Assembly: GCA_963728565.1 (NCBI GenBank)
Contig: CAVSLC010000001.1
Coordinates: 32,001 to 96,000 of the forward strand
Length of the DNA: 64,000 nt
Direction: 5' to 3'
Source: an uncultured delta proteobacterium
GTDB lineage: Bacteria; Desulfobacterota; Binatia; UBA9968
The notes below the pieces were generated by a model that was not told where the DNA came from, made no database searches, and was given only the letters and a program-made list of their open reading frames with translations. Numbering within the stretch: the stretch's first letter is position 1; every line of letters begins with the position of its first letter. Positions 1 to 40,617 of this stretch are shown piece after piece. Both the position numbers and the translations under genes were made by a program.

Positions 1-1827
1 GGTATTTGCATAGGTTGTCGGCGGCTCGCCGCCGGTAATGTCAACGGGATTGCCGGCGGCGCCAAAAGGCGGAATGAACTTGCGAAACGCAGCGTCGAGA
101 TCCGGCGGCATTTTCATCAAGGACAAGCCGTTGTCGACGCATGCGTCCGACAACAAAACGCCCGATCCGCCGGCACCGGTGATGATCACCACGTTCTCCC
201 CTTGGGGATTCGGCAGCACCTGGAGGCCGCGAGCGAATTGCAGCATGTCATTTAAACTTTTCGCCCGAACAACACCGCATTGTCGCAGCACGTCATCATA
301 GATCTTATCGTTTCCTGCCAGGGCGCCCGTATGGGACGCCGCGGCGCGCGCGCCCAGCGCCGTACGCCCGGCTTTGAGCACAACGATCGGTTTCTTTTTC
401 GACACGCGGCTCGCCACTTCGGCGAACGAACGGCCGTCTTTTAAATCTTCACAGTGCATCGCTATGACCTGGGTATTGTCATCCTGTTCGAAATAAGTCA
501 GGAGATCGTCTTCGTCGAGATCCGCCTTGTTGCCGAGGCCGACTATGGCCGACACTCCCATCTTCGTGGAGCGCGAAAATCCGATAATCGACATGCCGAC
601 GCCGCCCGACTGCGAGCTGAGCGCCACTTTGCCCTTGACGTCGTAGGGCGTGCAAAAAGTGGCGCAGAGATTTTGCGGCGTATAGTAAAAGCCGTAGATA
701 TTGGGACCCATGACACGGACGTTGTGCTTGCGCGCCACTCCAAGCAGCTCGTCCTGCAGCGCCTGCTCACCGATCTCGGCAAACCCCGACGGGATCATGA
801 CGGCGCCGGGAATTTTCTTTTGGCCGACTTCCTCCATCGCGGCGGCGCAGAATTTGGCCGGAATCGCGAACACCGCCACGTCAATTTCGTCATCCACTTT
901 GAGCACGCTTGGGTATGCCTTGCGCCCGAGGATTTCGCCGGCCTTGGGATGAATCGGCAAGATCGCTCCTTGATAGCCGCCGTTGATAAGATTTTTCATC
1001 ACCGAATTGCCGATCTTACCATCTTCCGCCGAGGCGCCGATCACGGCGACGGAACGGGGATTCATGATGCGCTGCATAGCGGCGAGAATTTCGCTCTGAC
1101 TGTAGCGCCGCCGCGATTGTGGCGGCTCTCCCAGGACGATCCGCACGTCCACGGCATTGGCTCCCGTATCCGTGGCAAAGATCGGATTCAAATCAACCTC
1201 GTGAATTTCTGGAAAGTCAGTCACCAGCGTCGACACTTTTGAGATGATGTCGGCCAGTGCCGCGCGCTCAACGCCTTTACCGCCGCGCACGCCGCGCAGA
1301 ACCTCAGCGGCTGCGATAGAATCAAGCATTGCCAGCGCCTCGGTCTCGTTCACCGGGGCCATGCGAAAGGTGATGTCTTTCATCACTTCGACGAGAACGC
1401 CGCCAAGACCGAAGGCGATCATTTTTCCGAAGGTGGTATCGCTCACGGCGCCAACCATGACTTCCTGGCCGCCTTTGAGCATTTGCTGCACCTGCACGCC
1501 CTGTATGCTGACGTTGCTGTTGTACTGCTTGGCATTGTTGACGAGCTGTTCGAATCCCGCCCGCACATCTGCTGCGTTCTCCAGTCCAACGATAACGCCA
1601 CCCGCCTCCGTCTTGTGAAGGATATCGGCCGAAACTATTTTCAATACGACCGGGAAACCCAACGCCGCGGCTACTTCCGCCGCCTTTGACGCTGTTGTTG
1701 CCAGCGCTTGTTTCGGCGTCGAGATTCCGTATGCCTCGCAGAGCTGCTGCGCCTCGGGCGCGGTCAAAGCCCGACGCCCCGCGCTCAGAGCAGAGTTGAT
1801 AATGGCGCGCAAGTTTTCATTGTTCAT
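1..1827 (-). CDS. ADP-forming acetate/acyl-CoA ligase family protein (ATP-grasp domain first, then CoA-binding domain); runs off the left edge
   Basis: Manual minus-strand translation from ATG 1827 (GGAGG upstream): MNNENLRAII...EVDLNP...VAVIGAS...GPNIYG...SQSGG...GLGNKAD...KAGRT..GARAAASHTGALAG...NPVDITG. No stop in window, so absent from the ORF track. Confidence 0.88.
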   Translation of the reverse strand, partial: MNNENLRAIINSALSAGRRALTAPEAQQLCEAYGISTPKQALATTASKAAEVAAALGFPVVLKIVSADILHKTEAGGVIVGLENAADVRAGFEQLVNNAKQYNSNVSIQGVQVQQMLKGGQEVMVGAVSDTTFGKMIAFGLGGVLVEVMKDITFRMAPVNETEALAMLDSIAAAEVLRGVRGGKGVERAALADIISKVSTLVTDFPEIHEVDLNPIFATDTGANAVDVRIVLGEPPQSRRRYSQSEILAAMQRIMNPRSVAVIGASAEDGKIGNSVMKNLINGGYQGAILPIHPKAGEILGRKAYPSVLKVDDEIDVAVFAIPAKFCAAAMEEVGQKKIPGAVMIPSGFAEIGEQALQDELLGVARKHNVRVMGPNIYGFYYTPQNLCATFCTPYDVKGKVALSSQSGGVGMSIIGFSRSTKMGVSAIVGLGNKADLDEDDLLTYFEQDDNTQVIAMHCEDLKDGRSFAEVASRVSKKKPIVVLKAGRTALGARAAASHTGALAGNDKIYDDVLRQCGVVRAKSLNDMLQFARGLQVLPNPQGENVVIITGAGGSGVLLSDACVDNGLSLMKMPPDLDAAFRKFIPPFGAAGNPVDITGGEPPTTYANT

Positions 1828-2067
1828 CGGAAACCTCCGAAGCTGATGCCATATAATCGTGAGTCGGAACAGGCGCGAGAATTCGCGTGTTCAAAGCTGT
1901 GCTGTTTACCGCGATTGGCCCGCCACGTAACAAGTGAGCAAGCCTTCCCGATGCTCATAGGCCAGGCGAACTCGTCACTTCAGTCGCGATCCCGGAACGT
2001 CCGAATGTCTACCCGCCCGGAGTCGTCAGCTCGCGCATCTGTGTGCAGCATTCAGCGCTTAGCAAGA

Positions 2068-3309
2068 TTAAATCGCGCCTTGGTTGCGCGCCGCAGCGAT
2101 TTCCGTGTCACTCCAGCCGACGATCGATTTTAAGATTTCGTCCGTGTGCTCGCCCAGGAGCGGCGGCGTTCTTACCTCGGTCGGCGAGTCGGACAGCTTT
2201 ATCGGATTTCCTACCGTCAGAAATTTGCCGCGCTTGGGATGATCGACTTCGACCACCGTGCCGGTATCACGCAGCGACTGCTCCAAGGCAATCTCGCGCA
2301 TATCGAGAATCGGCCCGCAGGGCACGTCGAATTCGTTAAGCGTGCGCATGACTTCCAGCTTATCGAGTGTCATCGTCCACTGCTCGATGATCTCGAAACA
2401 TTTCCCGAGCTTGGGCAAACGCTTTTCCGGAGTCGCCCATTCGCGATCGGTGATCAGCTCAGGCCGGCCGCAGAGCTTCATCAGGTGTTCCCATCCGGGC
2501 GGTTGAATGATGACGTAGATATAGTCGTTCGGTCCGCCGCCTTTGGTGCGCACGGCCCAGCCTGGCTGTCCGCCGCCCGACGCGTTACCCGCGCGCGGCA
2601 CGGCATCGCCGAAGACTCCATTGGGATACTGCGGGTATTCCATCAGCGGTCCTGCCGCGAGCCGTTGCTGATCGCGCAGCTTGACCCGGCAGAGATTGAG
2701 GACCGTGTCCTGCATGGCGCATGTCACCCGCTGTCCTTGACCGGTTTTTTCGCGCTGGAAAAGCGCCGCAAGGATCCCGGCAACCAGATGGATGCCCGTG
2801 CCCGAATCGCCGATCTGCGCCCCGGTCACCAGCGGCGGGCCATCGTCGAAGCCAGTCGTGCTCGCTGCGCCGCCGGTGCATTGGGCGACGTTTTCATAGA
2901 CCTTGCAATCCTCGTAAGGCCCTGGACCAAAGCCTTTGACGGAAGCATAGATCATGCGCGGGTTGAGTTCACGAATTACTTCCCAGGTAAATCCCTGACG
3001 ATCGAGCGCACCGGGGGCGAAGTTCTCCACCATCACGTCGCAAGCCTTTATGAGTTTGCGGAAAATCTCTTTGCCCTTCTCACTCTTGGTGTTGAGGGTG
3101 ATACTTCGCTTGTTGCAGTTGAGCATGGTGAAATAGAGGCTGTCGAAATCGGGCTTGTCGCGCAATTGGCCGCGGGTAATGTCGCCGCGTCCGGGCAACT
3201 CCACTTTAATGACATCGGCGCCGAACCAGGCCAAAATCTGTGTGCAGGTCGGCCCCGACTGCACATGCGTCATATCGAGAATACGAATTCCGTCGAGCGC
3301 TTTACCCAT
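2068..3309 (-). CDS. frc: Formyl-CoA transferase (CoA-transferase family III)
   Basis: [32 protein letters not shown] and the [10 protein letters not shown] glycine loop are typical of Frc. Confidence 0.93.
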
Positions 3310-3455: not shown

Positions 3456-5174
3456 TCATTTATACATGGTCTGCGCCTTGGTTCCCGGCGCGTATTCATT
3501 GATATCGACCCAGATGTTGACGATGGCGCATTGACCACCGGCGACGCGCTCGCGCGCTTGTTCCAGTGCAGGGCGAATCTGACCCGGCTCGCGCACCGCA
3601 ATACCCCACCCGCCAAAACATTCGGCGAACTTTTCGAAATCGACATCGCCGAGCTTGTTGCCGACACAGCCGCGCTCGGGACCGTACTTGCCGATCTGGC
3701 CGCAGCGGATTTGGTTCATCGCCGAGTTGTTGCCGATGACGGCGATGTAAGGCAGGCCGAAACGCTGCGCCGTTTCCATATCCCACGATGTCATACCGAA
3801 GGAGCCGTCGCCGTAGTAGCACAGCACTTCTTTCTTGGGATGAACAAATTTGGTCGCCATCGCGAACGAGGTGCCGACTCCCAGCGTACCGAGCGGCCCG
3901 GGATCCATCCAATTGCCGGCTTTGCGCGGTTCCACCGCGGTCGCGGTGATCGTAACTACATCGCCGCCGTCGCCGATGTAAACGGTATTGTCGGTTAGAA
4001 ATTCGTTGATCTCATAGGCAACCCGGTACGGATTGATCGGCGTCGAATCGGATTTGAACGACGGCAGCAGTTTCTCGTAAGCCTTGGCTTCCGCGCTGCG
4101 CAATTCTTTCATCCATTCGGCGCGCTTCGCGTTTCCATTGGAAGCGCGCCCGCTCGCAGCCTGCGCTACGGCGCTCAGAATCGCGCCGCAATCACCCACC
4201 AGCCCCAGTGATATATCGCGGTTCTTGCCGACATTGCGGTAATCCAAATCGATTTGCACGACCGTCGCATCGGCACGCAACCGCCGACCGTAGCCGAGAC
4301 GAAAATCGAACGGACTGCCGACGATAAGGATCACGTCGGCCTTGTCGAACGCAAGCCGCCGTGTTCGATTAAAGCCATGCGGATCGCCGGGGGCGAAAAC
4401 GCCGCGCGCCGAGCCGTTCATATAACCGGGAATATTGAGCGCGCGGCAAAACTCCACCGCCGCGTCATGCCCTCGGCAGGTCCAAACCTGCGTGCCGAAT
4501 AACGCCGCCGGACGCTCGGCCTTGACTAAAATATCGGCGAGCCGTTCGATATCGGCGGGATCGCCCACCGATTTAGTCGAGGCGCGATAGGCGCCGGGTT
4601 TGGGAACCCGCGCTCGCTCAAGCGGCACCTTGGCATCGAGCACGTCACGGGGGATTTCCAAATAGCTCGGTCCCGGGGCGCCATTGACGGATTCACGGAA
4701 AGCCATCGAGACCATGTCGGCGATGCGTTCTGTGTGCGGCACGCTCGCAGCAAACTTGGTTATCGGCGACATGAAATCGACGTGAGGCAGATCCTGCAGC
4801 GATCCCATCTTGTGCTGGCTCAGGGCCCCTTGCCCGCCAATCATGAGAAGCGGGCTTTCGGCGCGAAACGCATTAGCGATGCCGGTCATCGCGTTGGTGG
4901 TGCCGGGTCCCGCGGTCGTCACCACGCAGCCGATCTTGCCGCTCTGACGCGAGTAACCGTCCGCGGCGTGCGCCGCCACCTGTTCATGGCGCACGTCGAT
5001 AATCTTGATCCCTTCGTCGATGCAGCCGTCATAAATATCGATGATATGACCGCCGCATAGGGTCCAGATCACCTCGACGCCCTCGTTTTTGAGCGCCTTG
5101 GCGACTAGATGCCCGCCGGAAATGACCGGTCCGGTGGCTTCCTTTTTGGATTCAGAATTCACTGGCGTTGACAT
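3456..5174 (-). CDS. ThDP-dependent enzyme, oxalyl-CoA decarboxylase / 2-hydroxyacyl-CoA lyase-like
   Basis: RHEQVAAHAADGY, TAGPG, DPGPLGTLGVG and the GDGSFG...NN ThDP motif; sits directly upstream of frc. Confidence 0.85.
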   Translation of the reverse strand: MSTPVNSESKKEATGPVISGGHLVAKALKNEGVEVIWTLCGGHIIDIYDGCIDEGIKIIDVRHEQVAAHAADGYSRQSGKIGCVVTTAGPGTTNAMTGIANAFRAESPLLMIGGQGALSQHKMGSLQDLPHVDFMSPITKFAASVPHTERIADMVSMAFRESVNGAPGPSYLEIPRDVLDAKVPLERARVPKPGAYRASTKSVGDPADIERLADILVKAERPAALFGTQVWTCRGHDAAVEFCRALNIPGYMNGSARGVFAPGDPHGFNRTRRLAFDKADVILIVGSPFDFRLGYGRRLRADATVVQIDLDYRNVGKNRDISLGLVGDCGAILSAVAQAASGRASNGNAKRAEWMKELRSAEAKAYEKLLPSFKSDSTPINPYRVAYEINEFLTDNTVYIGDGGDVVTITATAVEPRKAGNWMDPGPLGTLGVGTSFAMATKFVHPKKEVLCYYGDGSFGMTSWDMETAQRFGLPYIAVIGNNSAMNQIRCGQIGKYGPERGCVGNKLGDVDFEKFAECFGGWGIAVREPGQIRPALEQARERVAGGQCAIVNIWVDINEYAPGTKAQTMYK

Positions 5175-5219
5175 GGTTGCCTCGCGTTAATTCTTCAGAA
5201 TAAGATTTTCCGCTTCAAT

Positions 5220-6035
5220 CTACCGTTCAGCGCGGACTCGGTAAAGCAACTGGCCGGATCCATTGACGCGGGGTGATCGAGCCCGACCGGAGCGATGATC
5301 AAAGGGTTCCTTTCCTCTTCTATTCCGCCTCTCGTTTTTTGACGGACGGCCGGACAACAGCACACTATCTTCAACCTGTTCGATATGGCGCAACATTTCA
5401 CTACGGGCTTTTGACTTATCGTGTTTTTCAATCGCGGCGACGATTCTTCGATGCGCTGCAATCGACGATGCTCTACGGTTGTCGGTCTGCAATGACTCCT
5501 CGCGGCTACGGCTCAACAGCTCCATCAACCCTGACACCAGTTTCTGCAGCGCCTGGTTCCGGGTGGTACGGCTAATGAAGAAGTGCAGCTCAGCATCCGC
5601 GTCGACGCCGCTCTCGCCGCGCCCCACCGCCTCGCTCTGCTTGGCGACAATTCTTTTCAGTTGCGCAACGTCATTCCGGCTGGCCCGCTGAGCGGCCAAA
5701 GCGGCAATATGCGGCTCGATCAACTTGCGCATTTCGAACATGTCCGCGAGAGCCTTTTTCTCGTCGATCAGTAGCCGCGCGAGCGGCCCGATCAAAGATT
5801 CAACCGGCAGGTCGGCAACGAAATTGCCCGTGCCGGTTCGGCTGACGATAAGTCCTTGGGTCTCGAGTGCGCGAAGCGCCTCACGCACCGAAGTTCGGCT
5901 TACTTTGAAAGTTTCAGCCAGTTCCCGTTCCGACGGCAGCTGATCACGCGCCCTGAACCGGCCCTGCTCGATCAGTTGACGGATCTGCTGGAAGACTTCC
6001 TCGTGAATTCGAATTCTTTTGATTGCGCGAAGCAT
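5220..6035 (-). CDS. FadR/GntR-family transcriptional regulator
   Basis: LPSERELAETFKVSRTSVREAL wHTH plus an FCD domain. Confidence 0.93.
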   Translation of the reverse strand: MLRAIKRIRIHEEVFQQIRQLIEQGRFRARDQLPSERELAETFKVSRTSVREALRALETQGLIVSRTGTGNFVADLPVESLIGPLARLLIDEKKALADMFEMRKLIEPHIAALAAQRASRNDVAQLKRIVAKQSEAVGRGESGVDADAELHFFISRTTRNQALQKLVSGLMELLSRSREESLQTDNRRASSIAAHRRIVAAIEKHDKSKARSEMLRHIEQVEDSVLLSGRPSKNERRNRRGKEPFDHRSGRARSPRVNGSGQLLYRVRAER

Positions 6036-27879: not shown

Positions 27880-27964
27880 TTAATTGACTTTAATTTGGCA
27901 AGTATATAGCATACCGGCAAAATCTTTTCGAATTTCGTTCCCACTTAGGAAGTCGAGCACACCA

Positions 27965-28909
27965 TTGGCAACGTTAAACGGCGCTGGGTCCATCCTGGAT
28001 CTGATCGGCTCCACACCCGTCCTCAAACTGAAAAGCTTACCCGGCAAAGATGACGCCGAGGTTTGGGCAAAGTTGGAGGCGTTCAATCCGGGCGGGTCGG
28101 TGAAGGATCGCATCTGTTCTAACATGATAGAAACCGCGGAACGTGAAGGTAAGCTGAAACCGGGGTCAACGATCGTCGAGCCGACTAGCGGTAACACCGG
28201 TATCGGTCTAGCATTAGTTGCAGCCGTGAAGGGCTATCGTTTGGTTTTGACCATGCCAGATACCATGAGCGAAGAACGTCGCAGCTTGTTGGCCGCTTAT
28301 GGAGCACGTTTAATTCTTACTCCAGATACTAAAGGAATGGGCGGGGCTATTCACAAGGCCGAAGAACTCGTGCAAGAAAACAGTGACTACTTCATGCCCC
28401 AGCAATTCAACAACCCGGCCAATCCCGAAAGTCATCGCCGGACGACCGCGATGGAACTGCTAAAACAATTCAAACGGATTGATGCTTTTGTCGCCGGGGT
28501 CGGCACAGGGGGAACGATCACCGGAGTCGGTGAAGTACTGAAAGACCGTTTTAAAGGTGTGAAAGTTTGCGCCGTCGAGCCGGCGTCGTCGCCGGTGATT
28601 TCCGGCGGGGAGCCGGGTTATCATAAAATTCAGGGAATCGGCGCCGGTTTCATACCGGCGGTTCTGAATCGTCAAGTTATCGACGAGATTATTCCGGTCA
28701 GTGATACGGACGCGATCAATTTTACACGCCGTTTAGCGTCTGAAGAAGGTCTTCTGGTGGGCATTTCTTCAGGTGCGGCTTGTTGTGCCGCGCTCCGCGT
28801 CGCCAAGACATTGGGAAAAGGGCAGATTGTTGTTACCGTCTTTGCAGATAAAGGGGAACACTATCTGAGCACAGATTTATTCGGGGAGAAGCGGTGGACG
28901 CAAAATTAA
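27965..28909 (+). CDS. cysK: Cysteine synthase A
   Basis: [28 protein letters not shown]; start (TTG) uncertain. Confidence 0.93.
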
Positions 28910-29704
28910 ACTATCTAGAAGACTCTACTACGTAACACGAACGGCGCAATCGTAGCGTTTTCTGCCGGCGTCGACTCGACGTTTTTGCTGAAGATCGCCT
29001 ATTCTGTCCTAGGGGAGCGCGCCATCGCCTTGACCGCAGCATCGCCCACAGTGCCGCCGGGTGAATTCGAAGCTGCGAAGGAGTTTGCCAAAACGCTCAA
29101 CTGTCGCCACATCGTTATCGAGTCCAATGAATTGGCCAATCCTTCATTCGCCCAGAATCCTTCCAACCGGTGCTTCTTCTGCAAGGACGAGCTTTACCGA
29201 CTCTGTCGAGATCAGGCGGAAAAACTAAACATTCCGGTAATTGTCGACGGTACCAATCTCGACGATCTGAAGGACCATCGCCCCGGGTTGAAAGCGGCCA
29301 AAGATTGGGGCATCCGTCATCCATTGGTAGAAGCGGAGATGACTAAAGAGGATATTCGGCGCTATAGCCGAGCACTTGATCTGCCCACCTGGGACAAACC
29401 CTCGAGCCCTTGCCTTTCATCTCGTTTTCCATACGGCACCGAAATAAATCTCGAGCGACTGCGAAAAGTCGGCGCCTGCGAGGTCTACTTGAAGGAACTC
29501 CGCTTTCGCGAGTTCCGGGTGCGCTATCATGGAGACCTAGCGCGCATCGAGTTGGCTGCACACGAGATCGGCCGATTCTTTGATGAGGCAACGCGACAAG
29601 CCGTGGTAAAAAAATTTAAAGAGATCGGTTTCAACTATGTGAGCCTTGATTTACAAGGCTATCGCACGGGAAGTATGAACGAAACTCTGGCGAAAGCTAT
29701 TTAG
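28894..29704 (+). CDS. larE: LarE-family ATP-dependent sulfur transferase (5' frameshift near 28920)
   Basis: [10 protein letters not shown]-loop upstream of the tracked [27 protein letters not shown]. Confidence 0.88.
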
Positions 29705-31333: not shown

Positions 31334-31756
31334 TTAGCGTAGTTCTAGAGCCATCACCAGCGCATCTTCGCCATTGTCAGAATAATAGCCTTTCCGCAGG
31401 CCTCGTATGACAAATCCGAAGCTACGATAAAGATTTTGTGCTGGAGCATTAGAGAACCGAACGTCAAGGGTTACTCGAAGCCGTTCTTGGCGCCGGGCCG
31501 CATCGACCACCTGCTCAAGTAGAAGCCGCCCGATCCCTTGCCGGCGAAAATCGGGATGCACGGCGATGTTATGGATATCTACTTCTTCAGGCAGGAACCA
31601 GAACAGAACATAACCAACAATGCGGCCTTCCACTTCGGCCAGAATGGAACGGGCGCAGTCCACCTGTAGTTCATCTAGAAAAAAGCGGGTGCTCCAGGGA
31701 AATTGAAACGATGCCCTCTCTATGGCAATGACATTTTCTATATCTGCGGCGGTCAT
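31334..31756 (-). CDS. rimI: Ribosomal protein S18 alanine N-acetyltransferase
   Basis: IERASFQFPW, NIAVHP.FRRQGIG, GLRKGYY...EDAL. Confidence 0.9.
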   Translation of the reverse strand: MTAADIENVIAIERASFQFPWSTRFFLDELQVDCARSILAEVEGRIVGYVLFWFLPEEVDIHNIAVHPDFRRQGIGRLLLEQVVDAARRQERLRVTLDVRFSNAPAQNLYRSFGFVIRGLRKGYYSDNGEDALVMALELR

Positions 31757-31786
31757 TGAACGAACCGAAGCGACCTTGCTCGACGC

Positions 31787-31821
31787 AAAAAAGCCACAGG
31801 ATACTTCACTATCCTGTGGCT
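31787..31821 (-). terminator. Intrinsic terminator after the ferredoxin fusion gene
   Basis: AGCCACAGGATA/TATCCTGTGGCT stem plus U tract. Confidence 0.75.
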
Positions 31822-31859
31822 CAGGCCCGTTAAGAGAAGTAGTTTGGGCAGACTTATCT

Positions 31860-33257
31860 TTACTGATAGGTGGCTCCCAAAGGAGTGCTTCGATCTTTTA
31901 ACAGAAGGACTTCAAGCAGCTTATTTTCGAACTTATGCGCAAATCCAACAATTCGATCCTGCAGTGGAATTACGGTGGTAAATTCCGGCGGAAACGCGCC
32001 TACACTGGAGGAGATCTTTCTGACCCGCTCGTCACTGCACCTGCCTCGAACTATAAATTGCCCACTTTTAAGGGCGAGATCATAATCATAGTCGGGCATT
32101 TCATCGGATATCTTATGACGATCAGCAACTCCGATGTCGGGTAGCGATCGGGGAAACTCAAGCCGTAAGAGCAACGCCCCGCCTCGATCTTCAACGGTAT
32201 AAACATTGCCGTAGCGTCTTTCGCGTTCAAGCTTGTCAACGAAACCGCGAGAGTAAAAACCATCGACGGGAATCGGCAGATTGCGAACCATACCAGTCTG
32301 CTTGGCCAACAAAGGTTGCAATAAAATGCCTAGCGGGATGCCGTAAATCGCCGCCGGCAACTTCATCTCTTCTGTAGGCTTGGCGTGAAAGATTCCATCT
32401 CTCAACCGATAAATTCCCTCAATTAGCGCTAGGATAATACCAATAAAAACGAATATATTGATGTCTTGACTGAAGAGGACTGCCGGTCCCTTGACCACCG
32501 CGGCCAGTACCATCAGCACAATTGGGTATAACACCGCATTATGAAGGATGTTCAGACCCGTGGCGCCGGCAGCACTGAAAACAACAGGATTTTGTACCGC
32601 TGACTCCAAGCTTTTCTTCATCTTATGCGGTAACGCGCCGAGCACGGGTTGAGACAATCCGATGAGCAAGCGCTTAATTCGGCTTAACTTTCCACCCCGA
32701 AATTGTATTACAAGTTCGTCGAAGTCGTTCGGCAGTTCATTGGGAAAAATCTTTTTGGGCTTGGCTTCTCTCTTGGGCTCGGGCGCGGTTTTTGGCGTTG
32801 ATTTAACAACATCGGCCGGAGCGACCGCCGGCTTAACCGCTGTGACAGCAGGAGGCGTCAGTGGCTTCACCGATGGAATTGTCATGGCAGCGGCAGCCGT
32901 AACGGGTGCAGAAGGCGGCAGCGCACTTTTCTCAGATGCTTCAACGGCAGGAGCGACCTGAGCTCCATTGCCTTTACGAAATCGTGACTGGAAATCAGCG
33001 CCAAAACTGGTTTCCGGGTGGATCGCTTTGGCCCGAGCAATCAGAACTTCTTCGCTCTCTATATTATTGGGATCGGTTACACAGCAATCGACTGGGCAGA
33101 CAGCCGCGCAGGCTTCGAAATCATGAAACCCAACGCACTCCGTGCATAAAAGCGGGTCGATGACATAAATAGGATCACCCTGACTGATCGCGTTGTTTGG
33201 ACACTCAGGCTCGCAGGCCCCGCAGTTGATACACTCGCTGGTAATCGTCGTCGCCAT
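31860..33257 (-). CDS. YfhL-type 2[4Fe-4S] ferredoxin fused to a Pro/Ala linker, TM helices and a C-terminal Hsp20-like domain
   Basis: CINCGACEPECPN...CTECVG...CAAVCPVDCC; hydrophobic segments around aa 235-320; beta-rich C-terminus. Confidence 0.8.
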   Translation of the reverse strand: MATTITSECINCGACEPECPNNAISQGDPIYVIDPLLCTECVGFHDFEACAAVCPVDCCVTDPNNIESEEVLIARAKAIHPETSFGADFQSRFRKGNGAQVAPAVEASEKSALPPSAPVTAAAAMTIPSVKPLTPPAVTAVKPAVAPADVVKSTPKTAPEPKREAKPKKIFPNELPNDFDELVIQFRGGKLSRIKRLLIGLSQPVLGALPHKMKKSLESAVQNPVVFSAAGATGLNILHNAVLYPIVLMVLAAVVKGPAVLFSQDINIFVFIGIILALIEGIYRLRDGIFHAKPTEEMKLPAAIYGIPLGILLQPLLAKQTGMVRNLPIPVDGFYSRGFVDKLERERRYGNVYTVEDRGGALLLRLEFPRSLPDIGVADRHKISDEMPDYDYDLALKSGQFIVRGRCSDERVRKISSSVGAFPPEFTTVIPLQDRIVGFAHKFENKLLEVLLLKDRSTPLGATYQ

Positions 33258-33282
33258 TAAGAAAACTCCCCGATTTTGTTTT

Positions 33283-33311
33283 TAATTACGTGGTTAGCCT
33301 AGAGTTGTCAA
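33283..33311 (-). promoter_or_regulatory. Sigma70-like promoter for the ferredoxin fusion gene
   Basis: TTGACA-N17-TAATTA. Confidence 0.5.
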
Positions 33312-33367
33312 TATAAACAGAGACGTTCTTGCATGTAAGAGAAAGATCATGTTAGCTATCGCTTCAA

Positions 33368-33443
33368 GGCGGCGTACCCAAGTGGTTAAGGGAGAGGTCT
33401 GCAAAACCTCGATGCAGCGGTTCGAATCCGCTCGCCGCCTCCA
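33368..33443 (+). tRNA. tRNA-Cys(GCA)
   Basis: Acceptor stem GGCGGCG/CGCCGCC, anticodon arm GAGGT-CTGCAAA-ACCTC, GGTTCGAATCC T-arm, U73 and encoded CCA. Confidence 0.97.
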
Positions 33444-33448
33444 GTGAG
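33413..33448 (+). repeat. attL core (3' part of the tRNA)
   Basis: TGCAGCGGTTCGAATCCGCTCGCCGCCTCCAGTGAG, identical to 40582-40617. Confidence 0.93.
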
Positions 33449-33584
33449 GATTCATTTTCATTCAACAATCCTAATCCTCGTCCTCGTCTCACTAAAAAAA
33501 TGTTCCGGTTTTGTTCCAACTTCGGCGTCAAAACCGCGTTGATCGCTTCTTTCATTTCCGGTGACACGGTTGCGTTTTGAGACT

Positions 33585-34655
33585 TCATTCATCGGCCGCT
33601 TTAAACCGTTCTTCTAACTTGGCCACAGCTTGCGCCTTGTGTTCCGGCGTAAGATGAGAGTAGCCGCAATGTCATGTTGATCTGTTTGTGGCCAAGCAAT
33701 TCTTTCACTGTGACCAAATCAACGCCGGCCATGACGAGATGGGACGCGAAGGTATGCCGAAGGTCATGGAAATGGAAATCTTCGATTCTTGCGGCCTTAC
33801 AGGCTCTTTTAAAGGCATCATAGACGGTAGTCTTGCCGACAGCATCACCCCACGGCCACATGAACAGACGTATCACCGTAGCGGTTGGCTTGAAACCAGT
33901 TAAGCGCCTCGCGCGCTTGCTCATTGATGGCGATGGTCTTTACCGTAGCGTTTTGCTCTGAATAATTGTAATCGATACCACGTTCAAAGCTAACATTATT
34001 CCACTTTGAGCCTTAGCAATTCGCCCTGCCTCATGCCGGTATTAAGTGCCAGCTTCACTAAAGGATGAAGCCAAGGCGAGGTAACGTCAGCTTTGCATTT
34101 CGACAATAAGCTCTGAACTGATCCGGCGGTTAAAAACCGGGTGCGCTTTGAGGTAACCGTAAACCGCTTAAACACCCGTGGCCGGATTGCTCTTTGTTAG
34201 TCTCAATCAAGAGCTTTCTTGAACATGTGCTTTATGACCGTAAAGGTATCGTTTGACTGTGCCTGGCTGTTACCGTTTTTGCCTTTGTCTGATTTCCACT
34301 TCTCGATCTGCCAAGTAGTGATCTGCGCCAAGGGAGTATCGCCGAACAATGACTGCAAACTCTTCGACGATTTATTTTTCCTTGTACCATCCTCGCTTAT
34401 ATCCGCTGGCAAATTCTCGATATCGTTTCGGCTAAGCTTTGAGAAAGGAATCGGCCGGCGCGTTTTCTCCAGATTGAAATGACCGCGGGCCATATCCCGC
34501 AGGCGAGATTTTAACGCCTCCTTCGCCACCTCCCGAGTGAATCCCCGCGACTTTCTGCCCCACCCGCTCTTTGATTTCGGTGCCGTCTACCTGATATCGG
34601 ATGTAGTAAGTTACGTCCCATTCTTGCCCTTGCGCTCGTAGATGCCTTTAGCCAT
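33585..34655 (-). pseudogene. Tyrosine recombinase/phage integrase with multiple frameshifts
   Basis: MAKGIYERKGK start; LNTGMRQGE; FHDLRHTFASHL; ELLGH..INMTLR(Y). Confidence 0.88.
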
Positions 34656-34848
34656 GACTAACGCCTTCGTTGTTTGTTTGCATGCTCGGCGATATTGCGC
34701 AGCGCGCCAATTCGACGACTCTAGGAATAATTACCTCTCCGATTTCCCATCGCGTCACGGTTCGGAGATGCACGTTCATTTCTTTAGCGCGGCTCGCCTG
34801 GGTATGACCCGCTTTAGCGCGAAGCTGCTTGAACTCATCCTTTGTCAT
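34648..34848 (-). CDS. Small XRE/Cro HTH protein
   Basis: FKQLRAKAGHTQ..AKEMNVHLRTVTRWEIG. Confidence 0.75.
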   Translation of the reverse strand: MTKDEFKQLRAKAGHTQASRAKEMNVHLRTVTRWEIGEVIIPRVVELARCAISPSMQTNNEGVSHG

Positions 34849-34872
34849 ACAGCCAATATGGCATTATGCCTA

Positions 34873-35139
34873 CTAGGCAACCGCAGAAATTATAGCTGGC
34901 TTGCTTGGATCGGTGCTGAGACTCGAAAAGCTCTCCAGGTCGTTTCTCTTGACCAATACGCGGCGGCCGACTTTTTGCGCTTGTAATTCACGCCGGCGGA
35001 TCAGCAAACGAAAAGTTGAAGTGCCAAGCCTCGAGGCTTCCGCCGCCTGTCTAATGGTGAGAAAGGCGGTTGCTGGAGACGCCTTTTGATTGAAGCTAAT
35101 CGGATCACGACCCATGGCCTCCTGCACTGCCTCCATCAC
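34873..35139 (-). CDS. Excisionase-like HTH protein
   Basis: FLTIRQAAEASRLGTSTFRLLIRRRELQAQKVGRRVLV. Confidence 0.8.
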   Translation of the reverse strand: MMEAVQEAMGRDPISFNQKASPATAFLTIRQAAEASRLGTSTFRLLIRRRELQAQKVGRRVLVKRNDLESFSSLSTDPSKPAIISAVA

Positions 35140-35547
35140 AAATCGGCTTGATGATTGCAGCCAATGATTCGACTAAAACCAAACCAGCTCATTGATCGGC
35201 CTTATCACTTTGCCTTCCTCATCCGGCCCTTTTCCTCGTCGCTGCTCAAAGTAAGCCGTCAAAATCAGCTCCCGCCACTCCGCAACATAGCCATCACTTC
35301 GGACAAGCGTGCTGGCCCTAAGGCGTCGATTTGGTCTTCAAGGTTCCTAATCTGCCCGTAAGGCCACTGATCGGTCTCCTTGAGAAGCCGGCAGTCGAAA
35401 TCGGGCTCTCAACACAAGCCGTTCATGGAACCTGTGAAAATCGGAATACCACTCTCGTGGTGAAACAATCGGATCTTTATCTCCTAATGGCTTTTCAATC
35501 GCTTCTAGGCTCGCCTCTATGGAATCAGTTTTATGCTTTGAGGATTT

Positions 35548-35629
35548 GCGACAGCGACAGTTGCGGTTTTTGCGACAGTCTCTGCTCTGAGTGGAGGTTT
35601 GTCGCAGCTGTCGCTGTTGTCGCAGTCGC
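35548..35629. repeat. Cluster of GCGACA/TGTCGC hexamers
   Basis: GCGACA at 35548, 35554, 35572; TGTCGC at 35600, 35609, 35618; AGTCGC at 35624. Confidence 0.7.
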
Positions 35630-35872
35630 AGCCGTGCCATGCGGCCGTTTTCGAATAAGCGGCGATAAAGTCATAGCTTATTCCCTTCGAGGAGAGCTGG
35701 ATTTACAAGAATCGCTTTTCGGCCATCTTCATCCAACAGCCGCACGGCCTTTGACTCAACCGATGAAGCGCCTTTACGGAGTGGACACCAGATGGACACT
35801 TACGTCGTTCAAAGTTCTGCGGCTTGAGAAATGACAAAGACGCGCATCCGTGGTTCGGGAGGGATTATCGAC

Positions 35873-36253
35873 TCAGCGATTAGGGGATGAAAACTCGCGC
35901 TTGCGCTTTATGGCCTCACTGCAACATTTAACTAGCAGTTCGCAAAAGCGTTCGCCCGTTGACTTACCCATGGCCTTGAGTTGATTTTCAAAACCGCCGA
36001 AGATTAGCCGCGCTGCATCAAGTTCGCTGATCGAAGACTGTTTGAAGTCCGGGTCTCTGGCCTCGGTACCAGGGATAATCCGAAGTTTTCCGGTGCGAAT
36101 GGCGGCCTGTTCATTCAACGAGCGCAGCCAATACGCGCAAATCTCATTCTCACGGTTTGAAAGCATCGCCCGTTGTAGTGCTTCAAGCTCTTTATCGTCA
36201 AGCCAGGCGAGATCGAAAACGTTAGGATCAACTCTTTGGAATCGTTGTTTCAT
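35873..36253 (-). CDS. Hypothetical protein in the island
   Basis: 126-aa intact ORF co-oriented with the int/xis module; no recognised motif. Confidence 0.55.
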   Translation of the reverse strand: MKQRFQRVDPNVFDLAWLDDKELEALQRAMLSNRENEICAYWLRSLNEQAAIRTGKLRIIPGTEARDPDFKQSSISELDAARLIFGGFENQLKAMGKSTGERFCELLVKCCSEAIKRKREFSSPNR

Positions 36254-37311
36254 GATCTACAACCTGTTGTCCCTGATCAGGGACGGTTCAGACCTCCTGC
36301 AGATAAGCGCGATTTCGCTTGATAGCCCCGTAGATGTCACCAAACTTAGCGAACTTAAATCTCTTGCCGTCTTTCCTACGGAATAACAGATATACGCTGC
36401 TACCACCGCAAAGCTTACCCTCGTCATCATACATATCGAACTCGTCTTCAGAGTTCCTGACACTCCACCTCAAGTACTCTATGAGCGGGAATTTCTAGCC
36501 ACTTCATGAAGTCCCGTCCTTCGGGCTTATACGCGACTACTGTCTTCAGGTGCTGGTGTGAAGATGCAGTCGTGCATAATCGTATGTCTTCTCCCACATA
36601 CGGGTGACTTCCGCCTCGGTGATGTACCCCATGATCCATATAAAGAGAACAACTAGAATTATAAGGATTGCTTCACTCTTTAATAGCCGAACCGAGTCTT
36701 CGATCATCAAGAGTTTCATTCGACCTGCCGGTCCAGTTGTCGCTACAGACTCCCCAAAACCAGTGGCGCGGGGAAGCGAAGAAGATCCATGGTGTCGTTA
36801 CAAGCTGCGCTTCTTCGCCCCCGCTGACGCCGCACTCTGAGCAAGGGTTATGCCCCCCTCAACTTTCATCAGGCCAGCTACGAGTTTGAAGCGTTTCGCG
36901 AGTTACGCGTGGCTCTGTCTGGCCACATTCGGCGGCAGCTTTGCCTGCTAAACCGACGGCGGATAATGATCGGGTTTATTTGTCAGCCGCTTCGGTTAAA
37001 AGACGTGATCATTTCCGAAGCAATAGTAATCCACAGCCGGCATGCTCCATGCTGTAGGGGGCCAAGTTGATAATTTTCGGCCAATCACCCGAGGATCTTA
37101 ACGCAGGTAACCGAAGCATTTGAAGTTGATAGTCAGAGAAATACTAAAGACGCTCCGGCTCGATTTATATCAACCGAGACGGCTTCGTGACTATGCGCTT
37201 GCCGTGGCTAAAGAAGCTTTATTCTTGGACCTACAAACTCTGAGATCTCTTACATTGGTCATACCGCTTAATGAGAACGACGTCCCGCGAAGAGCATAAG
37301 GAAGGGCAGCG

Positions 37312-37770
37312 ATGGAGTGTCTATACCGCCAGCATCTTATTCTTCCGGTAGCTTTCTTCGATTCGGCTATCGGCGATTGGACAGCTAGTGTTCACATCGA
37401 GTTCACTGAAAAACTCAAAATTTATACGGTCGTTTTAAAGTTCGGCGATGCCTTTCAGACTGAAGTGCAAGCTAAGCGGTTTACCATTAAAGAAGCCAAA
37501 CAATGGGTGGATGATAGACTTCGCGGTGCACTGCTGGTGAAGCCTAATCGTAAACACGTCTCATCAGCTATATCCAGGAGTAAACAAGCACTGTATTGGA
37601 TCTGTAGACAATGCAAAAACAATAGACATGATCTCTGCCTCAAAATTTCGACGAGTCGCGCCGGCAGTGACGTCAAGATCCGATGCTGGTGCAGCTTGCA
37701 CCCGACACACGAGTCACGCCTACACGACAAATCACCAGCGCAGATGGTGAATCCACGCAAAGCGCGGTGA
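37312..37770 (+). CDS. Hypothetical protein in the island
   Basis: 152-aa ORF with a GAAGG/AAGGG purine tract upstream; C-terminal Cys/His cluster. Confidence 0.5.
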   Translation: MECLYRQHLILPVAFFDSAIGDWTASVHIEFTEKLKIYTVVLKFGDAFQTEVQAKRFTIKEAKQWVDDRLRGALLVKPNRKHVSSAISRSKQALYWICRQCKNNRHDLCLKISTSRAGSDVKIRCWCSLHPTHESRLHDKSPAQMVNPRKAR

Positions 37771-38377
37771 TCACAATGAGCAGCACACTAACGGCGACAT
37801 CGCAGAATAACATTAAGATAAAAAAACGGCTGACAACGTTCGCCCTGGTCATAGCTCTCATGACTGGGAGCGTGGCACAACTGGCGGTGCTACTATACCG
37901 AGGTGCCCGTATAATTGTGGTAAGTAGCTTGAGCTTTGCCGGGGAGAATGGCTTGGTTGCTTGGGAGCAAGACAGGTTTCAGCAACAAACAATCAAAACC
38001 GCGATGCAGTAGCCATCAACCGTGTATCGGTACGCGATTCCGCGCTGGCAAAACTCATGCGCGGCTTATCCGAACGTCTTCGCATGTAATCGACTCAGTA
38101 CCCGGCCAGCGGACATCGCGACTGTGCTTGCCCCGTTCCCATCTGAACAGATTTAGGCACATGACGTATAACCGCTGGTCAATAAGCCAGAGTAGGACAG
38201 CGCGGAGTGCATTCAGCCTACGCTACATCCGCAGGGGTCGCCTTTTGTAGCTTAGATTCACCCGCCGGTCCCGTACACCGCACGTTTAACCGAGCAGCCT
38301 TTGACTCGCAGTCTTCTAGGCGTATATAGCTGCGCCACGAATGCAATCGAAAACCTTCTATGGGCAACAGTGGTCCT

Positions 38378-39085
38378 CGTGCTAAACCGCGCCATCCAAA
38401 TCCGGGAGCGGTCAAGGCATTGACTTCGTGCGCTGCCGTTCTGCGGCAGACACCTGTACGTAATCAGTGGCCGACATCTTCAACGCATGCACTGACCGTG
38501 AAACTTACATCGAGGAGTACCGGCTCAGCGCGGACCAACTCTGCTGCAAAATCTTCCGTGTAAATCATAGTTCCCAATTCGACTACCGTGCGCACAGCAG
38601 GCGGGAGTGGATCGCTGCGATGAAGGCGGTCTACAAGCAGCACGGCAACGTCTATGCAGGATTTCCGCAAAAGCACTATCCAAATCTCTATCTAGAAGCG
38701 CTTTGGCTAAACAGTGGAGACGGGATGCGGCTCTCCGTGTACTGGGATTCACACCGGAACGGATGCGGCTACGAACGTATTGGGAGGCCGAAAGAGTTGT
38801 CACCAAGATACATTTCTTACGGAAAAAAGGCGTACCGCTCTATCCGGCATATGTCCCAAAACATTACGCTGGACTGTTCTCCGCAGCTCTACGCATATTT
38901 GGGTCTTGGCAAACGCACTACTTGTCGCCGGTCTCGAAGTTCCTGACAGCCCGCATGATGGCCGTCGCGGAGTTTTACGGGCACTGCGTGATGCTTTGGA
39001 ACAGCATTCGGGAATGATCGCGGCGCTTCCGGTCCTGACCACTTCCAGAGAAGCTGAAACTGCACACGATTTACTACTTCGGTAG
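38378..39085 (+). pseudogene. MucR/Ros-like zinc finger plus FGSW..AL repeat protein, fragmented
   Basis: Reassembled across frames: DFVRCR.CGRHLYVISGRHLQRMH.TDRETYIEEYRL; LFSAALRIFGSW..ALLVAGL. Confidence 0.55.
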
Positions 39086-39106
39086 CTTGAGGAATGAGAA
39101 AGCGCG

Positions 39107-39980
39107 TTGAAGAAAGACCGAAGATTCCGGGCCGGATGGAGCACAACGAAGATAATTGCCGGCATTCGTGGCTTACGCGATTTGGGCTGGATCGAAGGAC
39201 AGAACATCACTATTGAACACCGGTACGCGAACAGGAGCTACACTCGTCTTGCAGAAATAGCAGCCGAGTCAGCCCGTCTTAACGTCGATGCTATCGTTGT
39301 GTGCGACTCGGTAGGAATCCGCCCTAGCTCGCAAGCAACGAAAACGATCCCATCGTGATAGTGGTTAGTGGCGATCCAGTTGCAGACGGCGTGATCGATA
39401 GTCTGGCACGGCCCGGCGGTAACATTACCGGCCTGACCAATATCTCACCGCAATTAGCGGGTAAGCGGCTGGAGCTGCTTAAAGACGCAGTTCCAGAAGC
39501 TTCAACGGTGGCGTACTCGGACCGGCTGATCATATGGATTGGAAAGAGCTTCAATTTGCCGCACAGCAGTTGGGAGTCAGGCTTCACACGCTTCAGGTCC
39601 AAAAAGCTGATGCGTTTGATCAGCCCTTCAAAGCCGCAATGCAGGACGTTCTAAAGCACTTATCGTGTTACCACATGCTATTACGAATTATAGTCGAGAA
39701 GACATTGTAACACTTGCGGCCAAGCACCGTCTCCCGACGATGCATGGCGTCAGTGTGTATGTGATCAGTGGCGGCCTCATTCCTATGGACCGCACCTTCC
39801 CGCGTTGCATTATCGCGCCGCTTACTATGTAGATAGGATTCTAAAGGTAACAAAACCCGCAGACTTGCCTGTGGAGCAGCCAACAAAGTTCGAGTGCTGA
39901 TCAATTTGAAAACCGCAAAGCAGATCGGCCTCACGATCCCTCCGAACGTACTGGCGCGGGCGGACAGAGTCATCGAATAG
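39107..39980 (+). pseudogene. ABC substrate-binding protein (ABC_sub_bind type) remnant
   Basis: GLRDLGWIEGQNITIEHRYA, DPV..G.IDSLARPGGNITG, KRLELLK, PADLPVEQPTK, INLKTAKQIGLTIPPNVLARADRVIE; no N-terminus, several frameshifts. Confidence 0.85.
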
Positions 39981-40581
39981 GAGTCATAATGGCACAACTC
40001 GAAAACGGCAACCCCGTATCTCTGGAAGAACTTGTGGTAACCACCCCTGGCGATGACGGACGCACTCGCCAAGCTACTAATAGAGAAGTGCGTCATCACA
40101 GACGCATAGTTTAAGCAGAATCTGATGGAAGAACGTGCGGTATATCAGCACATTTTGAACCCTAGACACAGTAACTAGACGCATATTGCGATGTCACAAT
40201 CAGTAAAGCTCACGGTGTTCGTGCTCGCGTTTAAATGTCATCGGCTTTGCCGTCCCAATAATAATGGGGAGCAACCACGCGAGCCCCAAACCACGCAATA
40301 GGTATCCTCACGCAATAGGTAGCCATTGGACGCGGTGCGCTGAGTCGGCGGGTTTTATGATCGCCAAGCTAATGACGTTGTGGAGACCGCTTTTTGGTTT
40401 TCCGTAACGTGAGGGTAGTACCATTAGAGAATGCCCATACCGGGGGTGTGCCAACATCCTTTGAAAAAAACGTTCCAACTTTGGGTAGCAAACCATAGCA
40501 CTCGGCAACATTCCCAAACGAAAAAAGCCCGGTCTCCCAGGCTTTTCTTACCACTTCGTGTTCTTAGGCTTAGCGCCTCGG

Positions 40582-40617
40582 TGCAGCGGTTCGAATCCGC
40601 TCGCCGCCTCCAGTGAG
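40582..40617 (+). repeat. attR core (duplicated tRNA-Cys 3' end)
   Basis: Exact copy of 33413-33448; extends to 42 bp with one mismatch. Confidence 0.93.

Follow-up and report, generated by a model that had tools for sequence, protein, structure and literature searches.

A ferredoxin fused to a putative membrane hairpin and a divergent Hsp20-like domain in the bacterial class Binatia

A 64,000-nucleotide (nt) stretch from an uncultured delta proteobacterium of soil (GTDB lineage Bacteria; Desulfobacterota; Binatia; UBA9968), taken from contig CAVSLC010000001.1 of assembly GCA_963728565.1 (positions 32,001 to 96,000 of the forward strand) and called the window here, encodes a protein of 465 amino acids (aa) that joins a ferredoxin to a domain resembling that of Hsp20 chaperones. 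The N-terminus is, judged by its sequence, a low-potential Alvin/YfhL-type 2[4Fe-4S] ferredoxin. It is followed by a long linker rich in alanine and proline, a short conserved motif, two probable transmembrane helices, and a C-terminal domain that profile comparisons place in the alpha-crystallin (Hsp20) domain superfamily as a very divergent member. Each end of the protein thus falls into a superfamily already known. The novelty lies in the fusion architecture, which is near-universal in the sampled genomes of one class, together with what the profiles indicate is a ferredoxin-associated branch of the alpha-crystallin superfamily without a family model. We are confident that this domain layout is right.

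The gene had been described in an earlier note made from the DNA letters alone, and the open reading frame (ORF) reported there is present exactly: it occupies 31860..33257 on the minus strand and encodes 465 aa plus stop in a single frame (protein P0001). The earlier note also considered the architecture undescribed. Literature searches found no description of a ferredoxin-Hsp20 fusion, and the main text of the Binatota genome paper contains none of the terms 'ferredoxin', 'hsp20' or 'heat shock' (PMC8262859). The claim of novelty therefore holds for the literature searched, but it does not hold for annotation pipelines, which already label some relatives 'ferredoxin/HSP20'. In other words, the fusion is visible to pipelines yet apparently undiscussed. 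The current names of homologues are 'hypothetical protein', 'ferredoxin' or 'YfhL family ferredoxin', and such names conceal two thirds of the protein.

The fusion as one polypeptide

Is the fusion a real polypeptide or two genes joined by error? The interior of the ORF contains no stop codon and no alternative start with a ribosome-binding site that could act as a divider. Homologues were searched with aa 170-465 as the query, a region that starts after the ferredoxin. Of 8000 proteins scored, 969 matched at E<=1e-3. Among the best 120 homologues listed, 110 carry Fer4 Pfam domains in proteins of 452-474 aa, and the other ten are all shorter. A relative is also encoded by 167 stretches of contigs drawn from one genome per species, 80 of which were kept for counts of ferredoxin position and neighbouring genes. 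The ferredoxin lies directly upstream of the remaining part in 71 of the 80 loci and is in frame with it in 69. Nine loci are without a ferredoxin: six of them are cut by a contig end, and in three (L032, L039 and L053) none was seen, L039 and L053 having little upstream DNA. Two further loci, L043 and L058, both on long-read contigs of metagenome-assembled genomes (MAGs), encode the ferredoxin part out of frame with the remainder of the gene; the assembly may contain an indel within the low-complexity linker, or the gene may be broken.

All domain junctions are bridged by a pair of contigs that come from soil RNA libraries. Record 17 of X3 covers positions 31700-33162 (1633 nt, 51 differences, no gaps), and record 4 of X1 covers positions 31909-33011 (1103 nt, 48 differences, no gaps). 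What these contigs show is that the libraries contain sequence of a close relative; they do not prove that the gene is transcribed, nor from which strand or between which ends. The possibility that a stand-alone ferredoxin gene and a membrane protein gene were joined by a sequencing or assembly indel finds some footing in L043 and L058 (2 of 80 loci) and in the three loci with no upstream ferredoxin, but it is so improbable that it can be dismissed, given in-frame fusion at 69 loci of independent assemblies, both parts in 110 of the best 120 homologues listed, gap-free RNA-library contigs across the junctions, and an ORF that nothing splits. The chimera proposed in the earlier note is thus one polypeptide.

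Purifying selection acts on all regions of the fusion gene. The ratio of nonsynonymous to synonymous change (pN/pS), computed crudely against five relatives, was below 0.55 in every region of the ORF: 0.00-0.04 in the ferredoxin, 0.24-0.54 in the linker, 0.08-0.20 in the hydrophobic region, and 0.07-0.21 in the C-terminal domain.

The ferredoxin head

The ferredoxin occupies aa 1-85 (33003..33257, minus strand). Its aa 1-77 matched the NCBIfam model of the YfhL family, NF033683, with 102.8 bits over model positions 1-78 of 80, the curated cut-off being 86. The match spans the full model. Solved Alvin/YfhL ferredoxins of Allochromatium vinosum (PDB 1blu and 3exy), Pseudomonas aeruginosa (Fdx, 2fgo) and E. 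coli (YfhL, 2zvs) were matched by the head with E values from 1e-25 to 4e-19 (~1e-25 for 3exy and 1blu), and the alignment extends to residue 78-79 of the 82-aa ferredoxins 3exy and 1blu. The YfhL-type assignment of the earlier note is thereby confirmed. Alvin ferredoxins are defined by two four-cysteine motifs, an insertion of 6-8 residues in cluster motif II, and a C-terminal turn and helix of 20-40 aa (PMC2984482). The head has both motifs, read from the sequence as C9-x2-C12-x2-C15-x3-C19-P (cluster I) and C38-x2-C41-x8-C50-x3-C54-P (cluster II), and a C-terminal turn and helix are predicted after the second. The C41-x8-C50 spacing fits the 6-8-residue insertion expected between two cysteines of cluster II.

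Features of the protein design were compared across 65 full-length orthologues, from which the over-long ORF calls L012, L016 and L067 were left out. The ferredoxin head has a mean identity of 79%. It is acidic in the source protein, where aa 1-85 contain 14 D+E and 2 K+R. Distant Binatia orthologues have an extra 15-residue insertion that separates the two cluster motifs.

Known Alvin/YfhL ferredoxins are stand-alone proteins of ~80-100 aa, whereas here the ferredoxin heads a protein of 465 aa, and within its clade fusion is the norm. Only proteins of <=100 aa entered the published inventory of Alvin ferredoxins, and the same source describes these ferredoxins as essential in Pseudomonas aeruginosa, with a function that is not known (PMC2984482). 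No stand-alone Alvin ferredoxin above the cut-off was found in the source genome, which is 80.6% complete. Across 51 genomes of the class, Alvin ferredoxins occur in open frames of ~450-580, 270-350 and 100-150 aa.

The source genome also carries a second Alvin/YfhL ferredoxin, in a paralogue of 274 aa (locus L090, positions 1501-2325, plus strand, on contig 20 of G000). The first 95 residues of the paralogue are nearly the same as in the fusion protein and are followed by a Pro/Ala/Ser linker. Its C-terminal part, which has no Pfam match, differs and contains two CxxC pairs and a charged tail. In other genomes of the class, too, this ferredoxin is found in frames of 270-350 aa.

The C-terminal domain

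The ferredoxin-associated, Hsp20/alpha-crystallin-like domain spans aa 326-455 (31893..32282, minus strand). A C-terminal domain of ~110 aa had been claimed; a conserved domain is present, but its size is ~130 aa. Its length is fixed at 129-130 aa across the 65 orthologues, with a mean identity of 62%. Ten residues are invariant in an alignment of 38 sequences (A1): R345, R347, R348, Y349, G350, R370, P373, P388, Y390 and P423. They lie in the motifs ERERRYG, LEFPR, EMPDYDY and AFPPxF. Beyond the ferredoxin part, no Pfam or NCBIfam model matched the protein, up to E = 10, and the CS/p23 domain (PF04969 and relatives) was absent among Pfam matches at E<=10.

The relation to Hsp20 comes from comparison of profiles with hhalign. 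An alignment of 45 family members (A2) compared with the eight Hsp20 proteins of the source genome (A3) gave a probability of 93.2% and a score of 49.6 (E 3e-7 over 90 columns), whereas the best shuffle scored 18.8 and the reversed alignment 14.9. The same 45 rows compared with 35 Hsp20 proteins from 29 genomes of the phylum grouping gave 92.7% and a score of 48.6 (best shuffle 19.4). Two query sets that represent disjoint sub-families behaved alike: a deep-branch set without Binatia (A5) reached 93.1% and a score of 50.3 against A3, and a Binatia-only set of 66 rows reached 95.3% and a score of 53.6 against the 35 Hsp20 proteins (best shuffle 19.2). Thirty column shuffles were made for each of the three comparisons that have a shuffle score. 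The alignments share one register over 88-97 columns that begin with the strand preceding 'VYTVED' and end with 'LLEVLLLK', the last strand; the middle loop is shortened, and the EMPDY segment forms an insertion of 16 residues. Because the scores of 48.6-53.6 stand against at most 19.4 in shuffles, the alpha-crystallin reading is supported by sequence. The likeness to Hsp20 suggested by the earlier note therefore holds at the profile level (93-95%), but not as a match to PF00011, the Pfam family of Hsp20.

Weaker signs point the same way. PF00011 weakly matched 2 of 45 family members (best E 0.015), the JGI pipeline labels two distant relatives 'ferredoxin/HSP20 family molecular chaperone IbpA', and HSP20-type families were the sole named ones among Atlas feature matches (0.86-0.88), which are leads only. 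The profile of the source genome's own Hsp20 proteins matches the solved structures 5j7n, 3gla, 1gme, 1shs and 4yl9. In that genome, eight canonical Hsp20 genes (loci L001-L008) score above the Pfam cut-off, and a ninth match has an internal TGA. Eight to nine such genes are many for a genome of 4.5 Mb.

Small heat-shock proteins (sHSPs) have a variable N-terminal arm and a C-terminal extension with an I-x-I/V anchoring motif, parts that are tied to substrate binding and to oligomers. The core domain described here aligns with that of sHSPs over 88-97 columns at 93-95% probability. It differs in the extra 16-residue insertion with the invariant EMPDY, in the invariant ERERRYG, in the lack of a PF00011 match, and in the fused ferredoxin and hydrophobic region. 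The sHSP arms are likewise missing. The hydrophobic region takes up the N-terminal side, leaving no free arm, and the tail after the last strand is 0-10 aa long with 18% identity. Many of the 65 orthologues end at that strand and, having no C-terminal extension, have no I-x-I anchoring motif.

The linker and the hydrophobic region

The low-complexity, Ala/Pro/Lys-rich and probably flexible linker spans aa 86-170 (32748..33002, minus strand). The long Pro/Ala linker of the earlier note is thus real, with 18 Ala and 15 Pro in aa 86-175. Over the 65 orthologues it consists of 31% Ala, 23% Pro and 10% Lys, varies in length from 68 to 123 aa, and has a mean identity of 38%. No tandem repeat was found in the linker DNA. 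Directly after the linker stands a conserved motif, F-P-x-E-L-x3-F-D (aa 171-180; 32718..32747, minus strand), whose consensus is FPGELxxxF[D/E]. A loose form of this motif is present in 63 of 66 full-length Binatia sequences, and the motif is also kept in forms without a ferredoxin or without a hydrophobic region.

Of the two to three hydrophobic helices claimed before, two are strong and one is doubtful by Kyte-Doolittle hydropathy. Helix 1 (aa 237-255; 32493..32549, minus strand; 2.26) and helix 2 (aa 261-279; 32421..32477, minus strand; 2.16) are probably transmembrane. A weaker Pro/Gly-rich segment (aa 300-318; 32304..32360, minus strand; 1.65) attains the threshold of 1.6 in some orthologues only and may be amphipathic or re-entrant instead of membrane-spanning. 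The loop between helices 1 and 2 averages 4.7 aa with 0.3 K+R in the 65 orthologues, whereas K+R average 3.2 in the 25 residues before helix 1 and 3.3 in the 20 residues after helix 2. A hairpin is suggested because the two helices are joined by a loop of ~5 residues.

Distribution and relatives

The domain profile matched 8 of 301 genomes in a sample of the phylum grouping, all of them in the source's own class: 8 of 10 class members, compared to 0 of 291 others. In a sample of the class itself, 161 of 201 genomes matched, as did 155 of 193 high-quality genomes and 71 of 88 genera, with one match per listed genome. These class counts include three unpublished genomes (G473, G477 and G453), all matching; leaving them out gives 158 of 198. 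The fusion gene is single-copy in the source genome. Most relatives are labelled as Candidatus Binatia or 'Deltaproteobacteria' MAGs, and a few carry other labels, which are unconfirmed. Outside Binatia, the relatives that their sources name are Planctomycetes and Latescibacteria.

When 1.84 billion cluster representatives were searched exhaustively, only 151 clusters matched at E<=1e-3. A Pfam scan of 67 representatives found a ferredoxin domain in 25 and no Pfam domain at all in 38, and ferredoxin was the only recurrent fusion partner of the domain. Four kinds of ferredoxin are joined to it: the N-terminal Alvin dicluster, an N-terminal single-cluster Fer4_13, other Fer4 domains, and a four-cluster polyferredoxin placed after the domain. 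Two relatives (P0229 and P0258) combine the domain with a four-cluster ferredoxin, and three (P0223, P0238 and P0242) have Fer4_13 before it and a polyferredoxin after it. In a FastTree phylogeny of 83 complete domains, midpoint-rooted and read without support values, one large clade comprises the Alvin fusions, and the deep branches carry the remaining ferredoxin types. A sister clade consists of ferredoxin-free forms that have a disordered N-terminus and keep the FPGELxxxF motif. Four relatives (P0163, P0166, P0182 and P0149) lack a hydrophobic region, so that ferredoxin, linker and domain stand in one soluble chain. Because these relatives keep both modules in one chain, the ferredoxin and the Hsp20-like domain appear to work in the same compartment.

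The sub-family that combines Fer4_13 with the Hsp20-like domain (~225 aa) was seen, for example, at positions 3474-4154 of locus L125 and 4929-5675 of locus L126. A TatD-family gene comes next downstream in both of the two loci with downstream DNA, and in two loci a gene for a tetratricopeptide repeat (TPR) protein and one for a tRNA U5-methyltransferase stand upstream. Across four loci of this sub-family, these neighbours (TatD, TPR protein, tRNA methyltransferase) give no functional clue. A locus search for the relative P0325 in metagenomes gave no match.

Flanking signals and neighbourhood

A Shine-Dalgarno-like GGGGAG, read from the sequence, lies 8 nt 5' of the ATG (33266..33271, minus strand). 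On the other side, an intrinsic terminator 3' of the stop codon (31791..31822, minus strand) has a 13-bp stem and a T-run, folds with -28.5 kcal/mol (z = -3.46), and stands between the fusion gene and rimI. The gene's own terminator, which had been claimed before, thus looks real. The candidate promoter did not fare as well. The promoter-like site (CTTACA, 18 nt spacer, TATATT; 33310..33339, minus strand) is a weak 9/12 consensus match that is not above chance, and it amounts to no evidence because three such sites occur in the region where shuffles give 1.8 on average. A tRNA-Cys gene at 33368..33443 on the plus strand is divergent from the fusion gene, as had been stated.

The check for a conserved neighbourhood that the earlier note proposed found a block of housekeeping genes downstream. 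Among the 80 loci, the downstream neighbours are rimI in 75, carD in 60, ispD in 57, a larE-type gene in 47 and a gene for a pyridoxal phosphate (PLP)-dependent enzyme in 46. The identity of the rimI neighbour comes from TIGR01575 (129 bits). The last two genes named adjoin each other in the window: a LarE-type sacrificial sulfur transferase gene (TIGR00268, 285.7 bits) lies at 28985-29704 and the PLP-dependent enzyme gene at 27884-28909, both on the plus strand. ARAGORN placed an 89-nt 'tRNA-Met' at 28594-28682 on the plus strand. It is probably a false positive because it lies inside the ORF of the PLP enzyme (27884-28909) and has no Rfam match at the gathering score.

Upstream, all 16 close loci have tRNA-Cys, compared with 0 of 18 distant loci. 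A functional link to cysteine or Fe-S supply through this tRNA gene was considered and rejected, as the synteny is confined to one clade.

The 3' end of tRNA-Cys is the integration site of a mobile element of ~7.1 kb (33444-40611). An exact copy of the tRNA gene's final 24 nt (33419-33442) stands at 40588-40611, where none would be expected by chance, and a 97%-identical relative (L010) lacks 33460-40575. A tyrosine integrase adjoins the tRNA gene in three pieces (33601-33924, 33996-34175 and 34203-34529, all on the minus strand). It is followed by a gene resembling helix-turn-helix repressors (34648-34848) and an excisionase-like gene (34873-35139). The remainder of the element has no Pfam or PHROGs match.

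Possible function

How might a protein of this architecture work? Tentatively, we propose a tether and a hub, in which the ferredoxin is flexibly tethered and the Hsp20-like domain serves as an assembly or docking module, not as a classical holdase. The ferredoxin head would be located in the cytoplasm because it has no export signal, and it would hang from a flexible Ala/Pro/Lys-rich arm of 70-120 residues. A tight two-helix hairpin would anchor this arm at the inner membrane face, and the Hsp20-like domain would lie on the same cytoplasmic side as a fixed assembly or docking module. The domain may self-associate as alpha-crystallin domains do, or its invariant arginine cluster may bind the acidic ferredoxin or a partner. 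The outcome would be an electron carrier kept at the membrane surface and sweeping between partner enzymes. The family offers support for such a design. Linker length is free (68-123 aa) whereas domain length is fixed (129-130 aa), and the 274-aa paralogue pairs a nearly identical ferredoxin and linker with a different C-terminal module, as a modular tether would.

The design has known counterparts. In 2-oxoacid dehydrogenases, lipoyl domains swing on Ala/Pro-rich arms from an E2 core. E2 chains and the fusion protein are alike in that a small N-terminal carrier domain, an Ala/Pro-rich linker and a C-terminal assembling module would follow one another; this is a likeness of design, with no homology, and C-terminal assembly is a proposal in the present case. 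A second counterpart is NCB5OR (CYB5R4), an electron-transfer protein with a CS domain between cytochrome b5 and b5 reductase, a beta-sandwich of the Hsp20/p23 type thought to serve protein-protein contacts (PMC9706631). In the relatives P0223, P0238 and P0242, the Hsp20-like domain is likewise flanked by ferredoxin modules on both sides. NCB5OR differs in being eukaryotic, in using haem and flavin, in the CS sub-type of its domain, and in having neither a membrane hairpin nor a long Ala/Pro linker; the comparison is one of architecture.

Several observations weigh against the tether-and-hub proposal. Membrane insertion and topology are predictions from hydropathy, the number of segments at the hydropathy threshold ranges from 0 to 4 among orthologues, and three spans would place the Hsp20-like domain outside the cell. 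Self-association and ferredoxin docking are proposals from architecture. The conserved neighbours are housekeeping genes, the upstream genes vary between clades and are unconserved in distant Binatia loci, and genes for redox enzymes or Fe-S biogenesis are not among the conserved neighbours in Binatia loci. Furthermore, some lineages hold the domain without a ferredoxin; therefore, the domain has a role that is independent of a fused ferredoxin. The fold, too, is a prediction. A beta-sandwich of seven to eight strands, as in sHSPs, is predicted for aa 326-455 from sequence profiles, PF00011 matched neither the whole protein nor the isolated domain at E<=10, the domain profile had 0 matches to PDB sequences at E<=10, and pairwise BLASTP against one of the source genome's own Hsp20 proteins was not significant and partly out of register.

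One reading offered in the earlier note, which we consider unlikely, is that the protein is a redox-coupled membrane holdase. In this case, the domain would bind unfolding proteins at the membrane and the state of the Fe-S cluster (reduced, oxidised or lost) would switch its activity. The profile relation to Hsp20 would suit such a role, and fusions between chaperones and ferredoxins exist elsewhere. Chlamydomonas CDJ3-5 consist of a J domain and a bacterial-type 4Fe-4S ferredoxin domain and are described as having no known function (10.1101/2025.08.22.671721). They and their thaumarchaeal relatives are alike to the present protein in that a module of a chaperone system is fused to a 4Fe-4S ferredoxin domain. 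CDJ3-5 differ in having a J domain and not an alpha-crystallin domain, another type of ferredoxin, and no membrane region. Binatota are described as aerobes (PMC8262859), and an oxygen-labile cluster could be a sensor in such organisms. However, a free N-terminal arm is missing, many orthologues lack the C-terminal extension, invariant charged motifs stand in place of hydrophobic patches, 8-9 ordinary Hsp20 genes are already present in the genome, and the neighbours are not stress genes. The four kinds of fused ferredoxin, including polyferredoxins, also resemble an electron-transfer architecture, not a sensor. We do not think that the Hsp20-like domain is a general holdase.

Still less likely is a role in maturation or protection, in which the domain would hold or shield an apo- or holo-ferredoxin, be it the fused one or that of a partner, or would recruit Fe-S cluster carriers. 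It would then serve the insertion and stability of clusters and not the routing of electrons. That Fe-S ferredoxins of unrelated types are the only recurrent fusion partners is consistent with it, and the invariant arginine cluster could face the acidic ferredoxin head (14 D+E and 2 K+R in aa 1-85). Yet Fe-S biogenesis genes are not among the conserved neighbours, either in Binatia or in the four Fer4_13 loci, and a linker of 70-120 aa together with a membrane hairpin is hard to reconcile with a shield that acts in cis.

The fold itself can be read in another way, though with low probability: the similarity to Hsp20 could come from convergent strand patterns of some other beta-rich fold, and the domain would then be a new one without chaperone ancestry. 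The failures of sequence matching just mentioned (no Pfam or NCBIfam match, 0 PDB matches for the profile, no significant pairwise BLASTP) suit this view, as do hhalign probabilities that top out at 93-95% instead of 99% and an identity of 15-23% in aligned columns. Against it, two disjoint sub-family profiles each align with the Hsp20 domain over 88-97 columns and agree in register between strand 2/3 and the last strand, while the controls score much lower (<=19.4). Weak matches recur, moreover, for PF00011 but for no other non-ferredoxin chaperone family, and the JGI names 'ferredoxin/HSP20' agree with a relation to Hsp20.

Significance

It is conceivable, though doubtful, that the 130-aa domain founds a ferredoxin-dedicated branch of the alpha-crystallin superfamily that organises Fe-S electron carriers and does not hold unfolded proteins. 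In Binatia it would form a membrane hub displaying low-potential ferredoxins on swinging arms, an electron shuttle tethered by protein much as lipoyl groups are, and in other phyla it would space and orient the modules of polyferredoxins. For the ferredoxin, a lineage in which it appears permanently linked with a membrane anchor and a domain of docking type points to a site of action and offers a handle for finding partners. For the alpha-crystallin fold, repeated joining of the domain to unrelated ferredoxins in several phyla suggests a non-chaperone use in electron-transfer proteins. It would be a new use of an old fold, in a domain that has had no family model so far.

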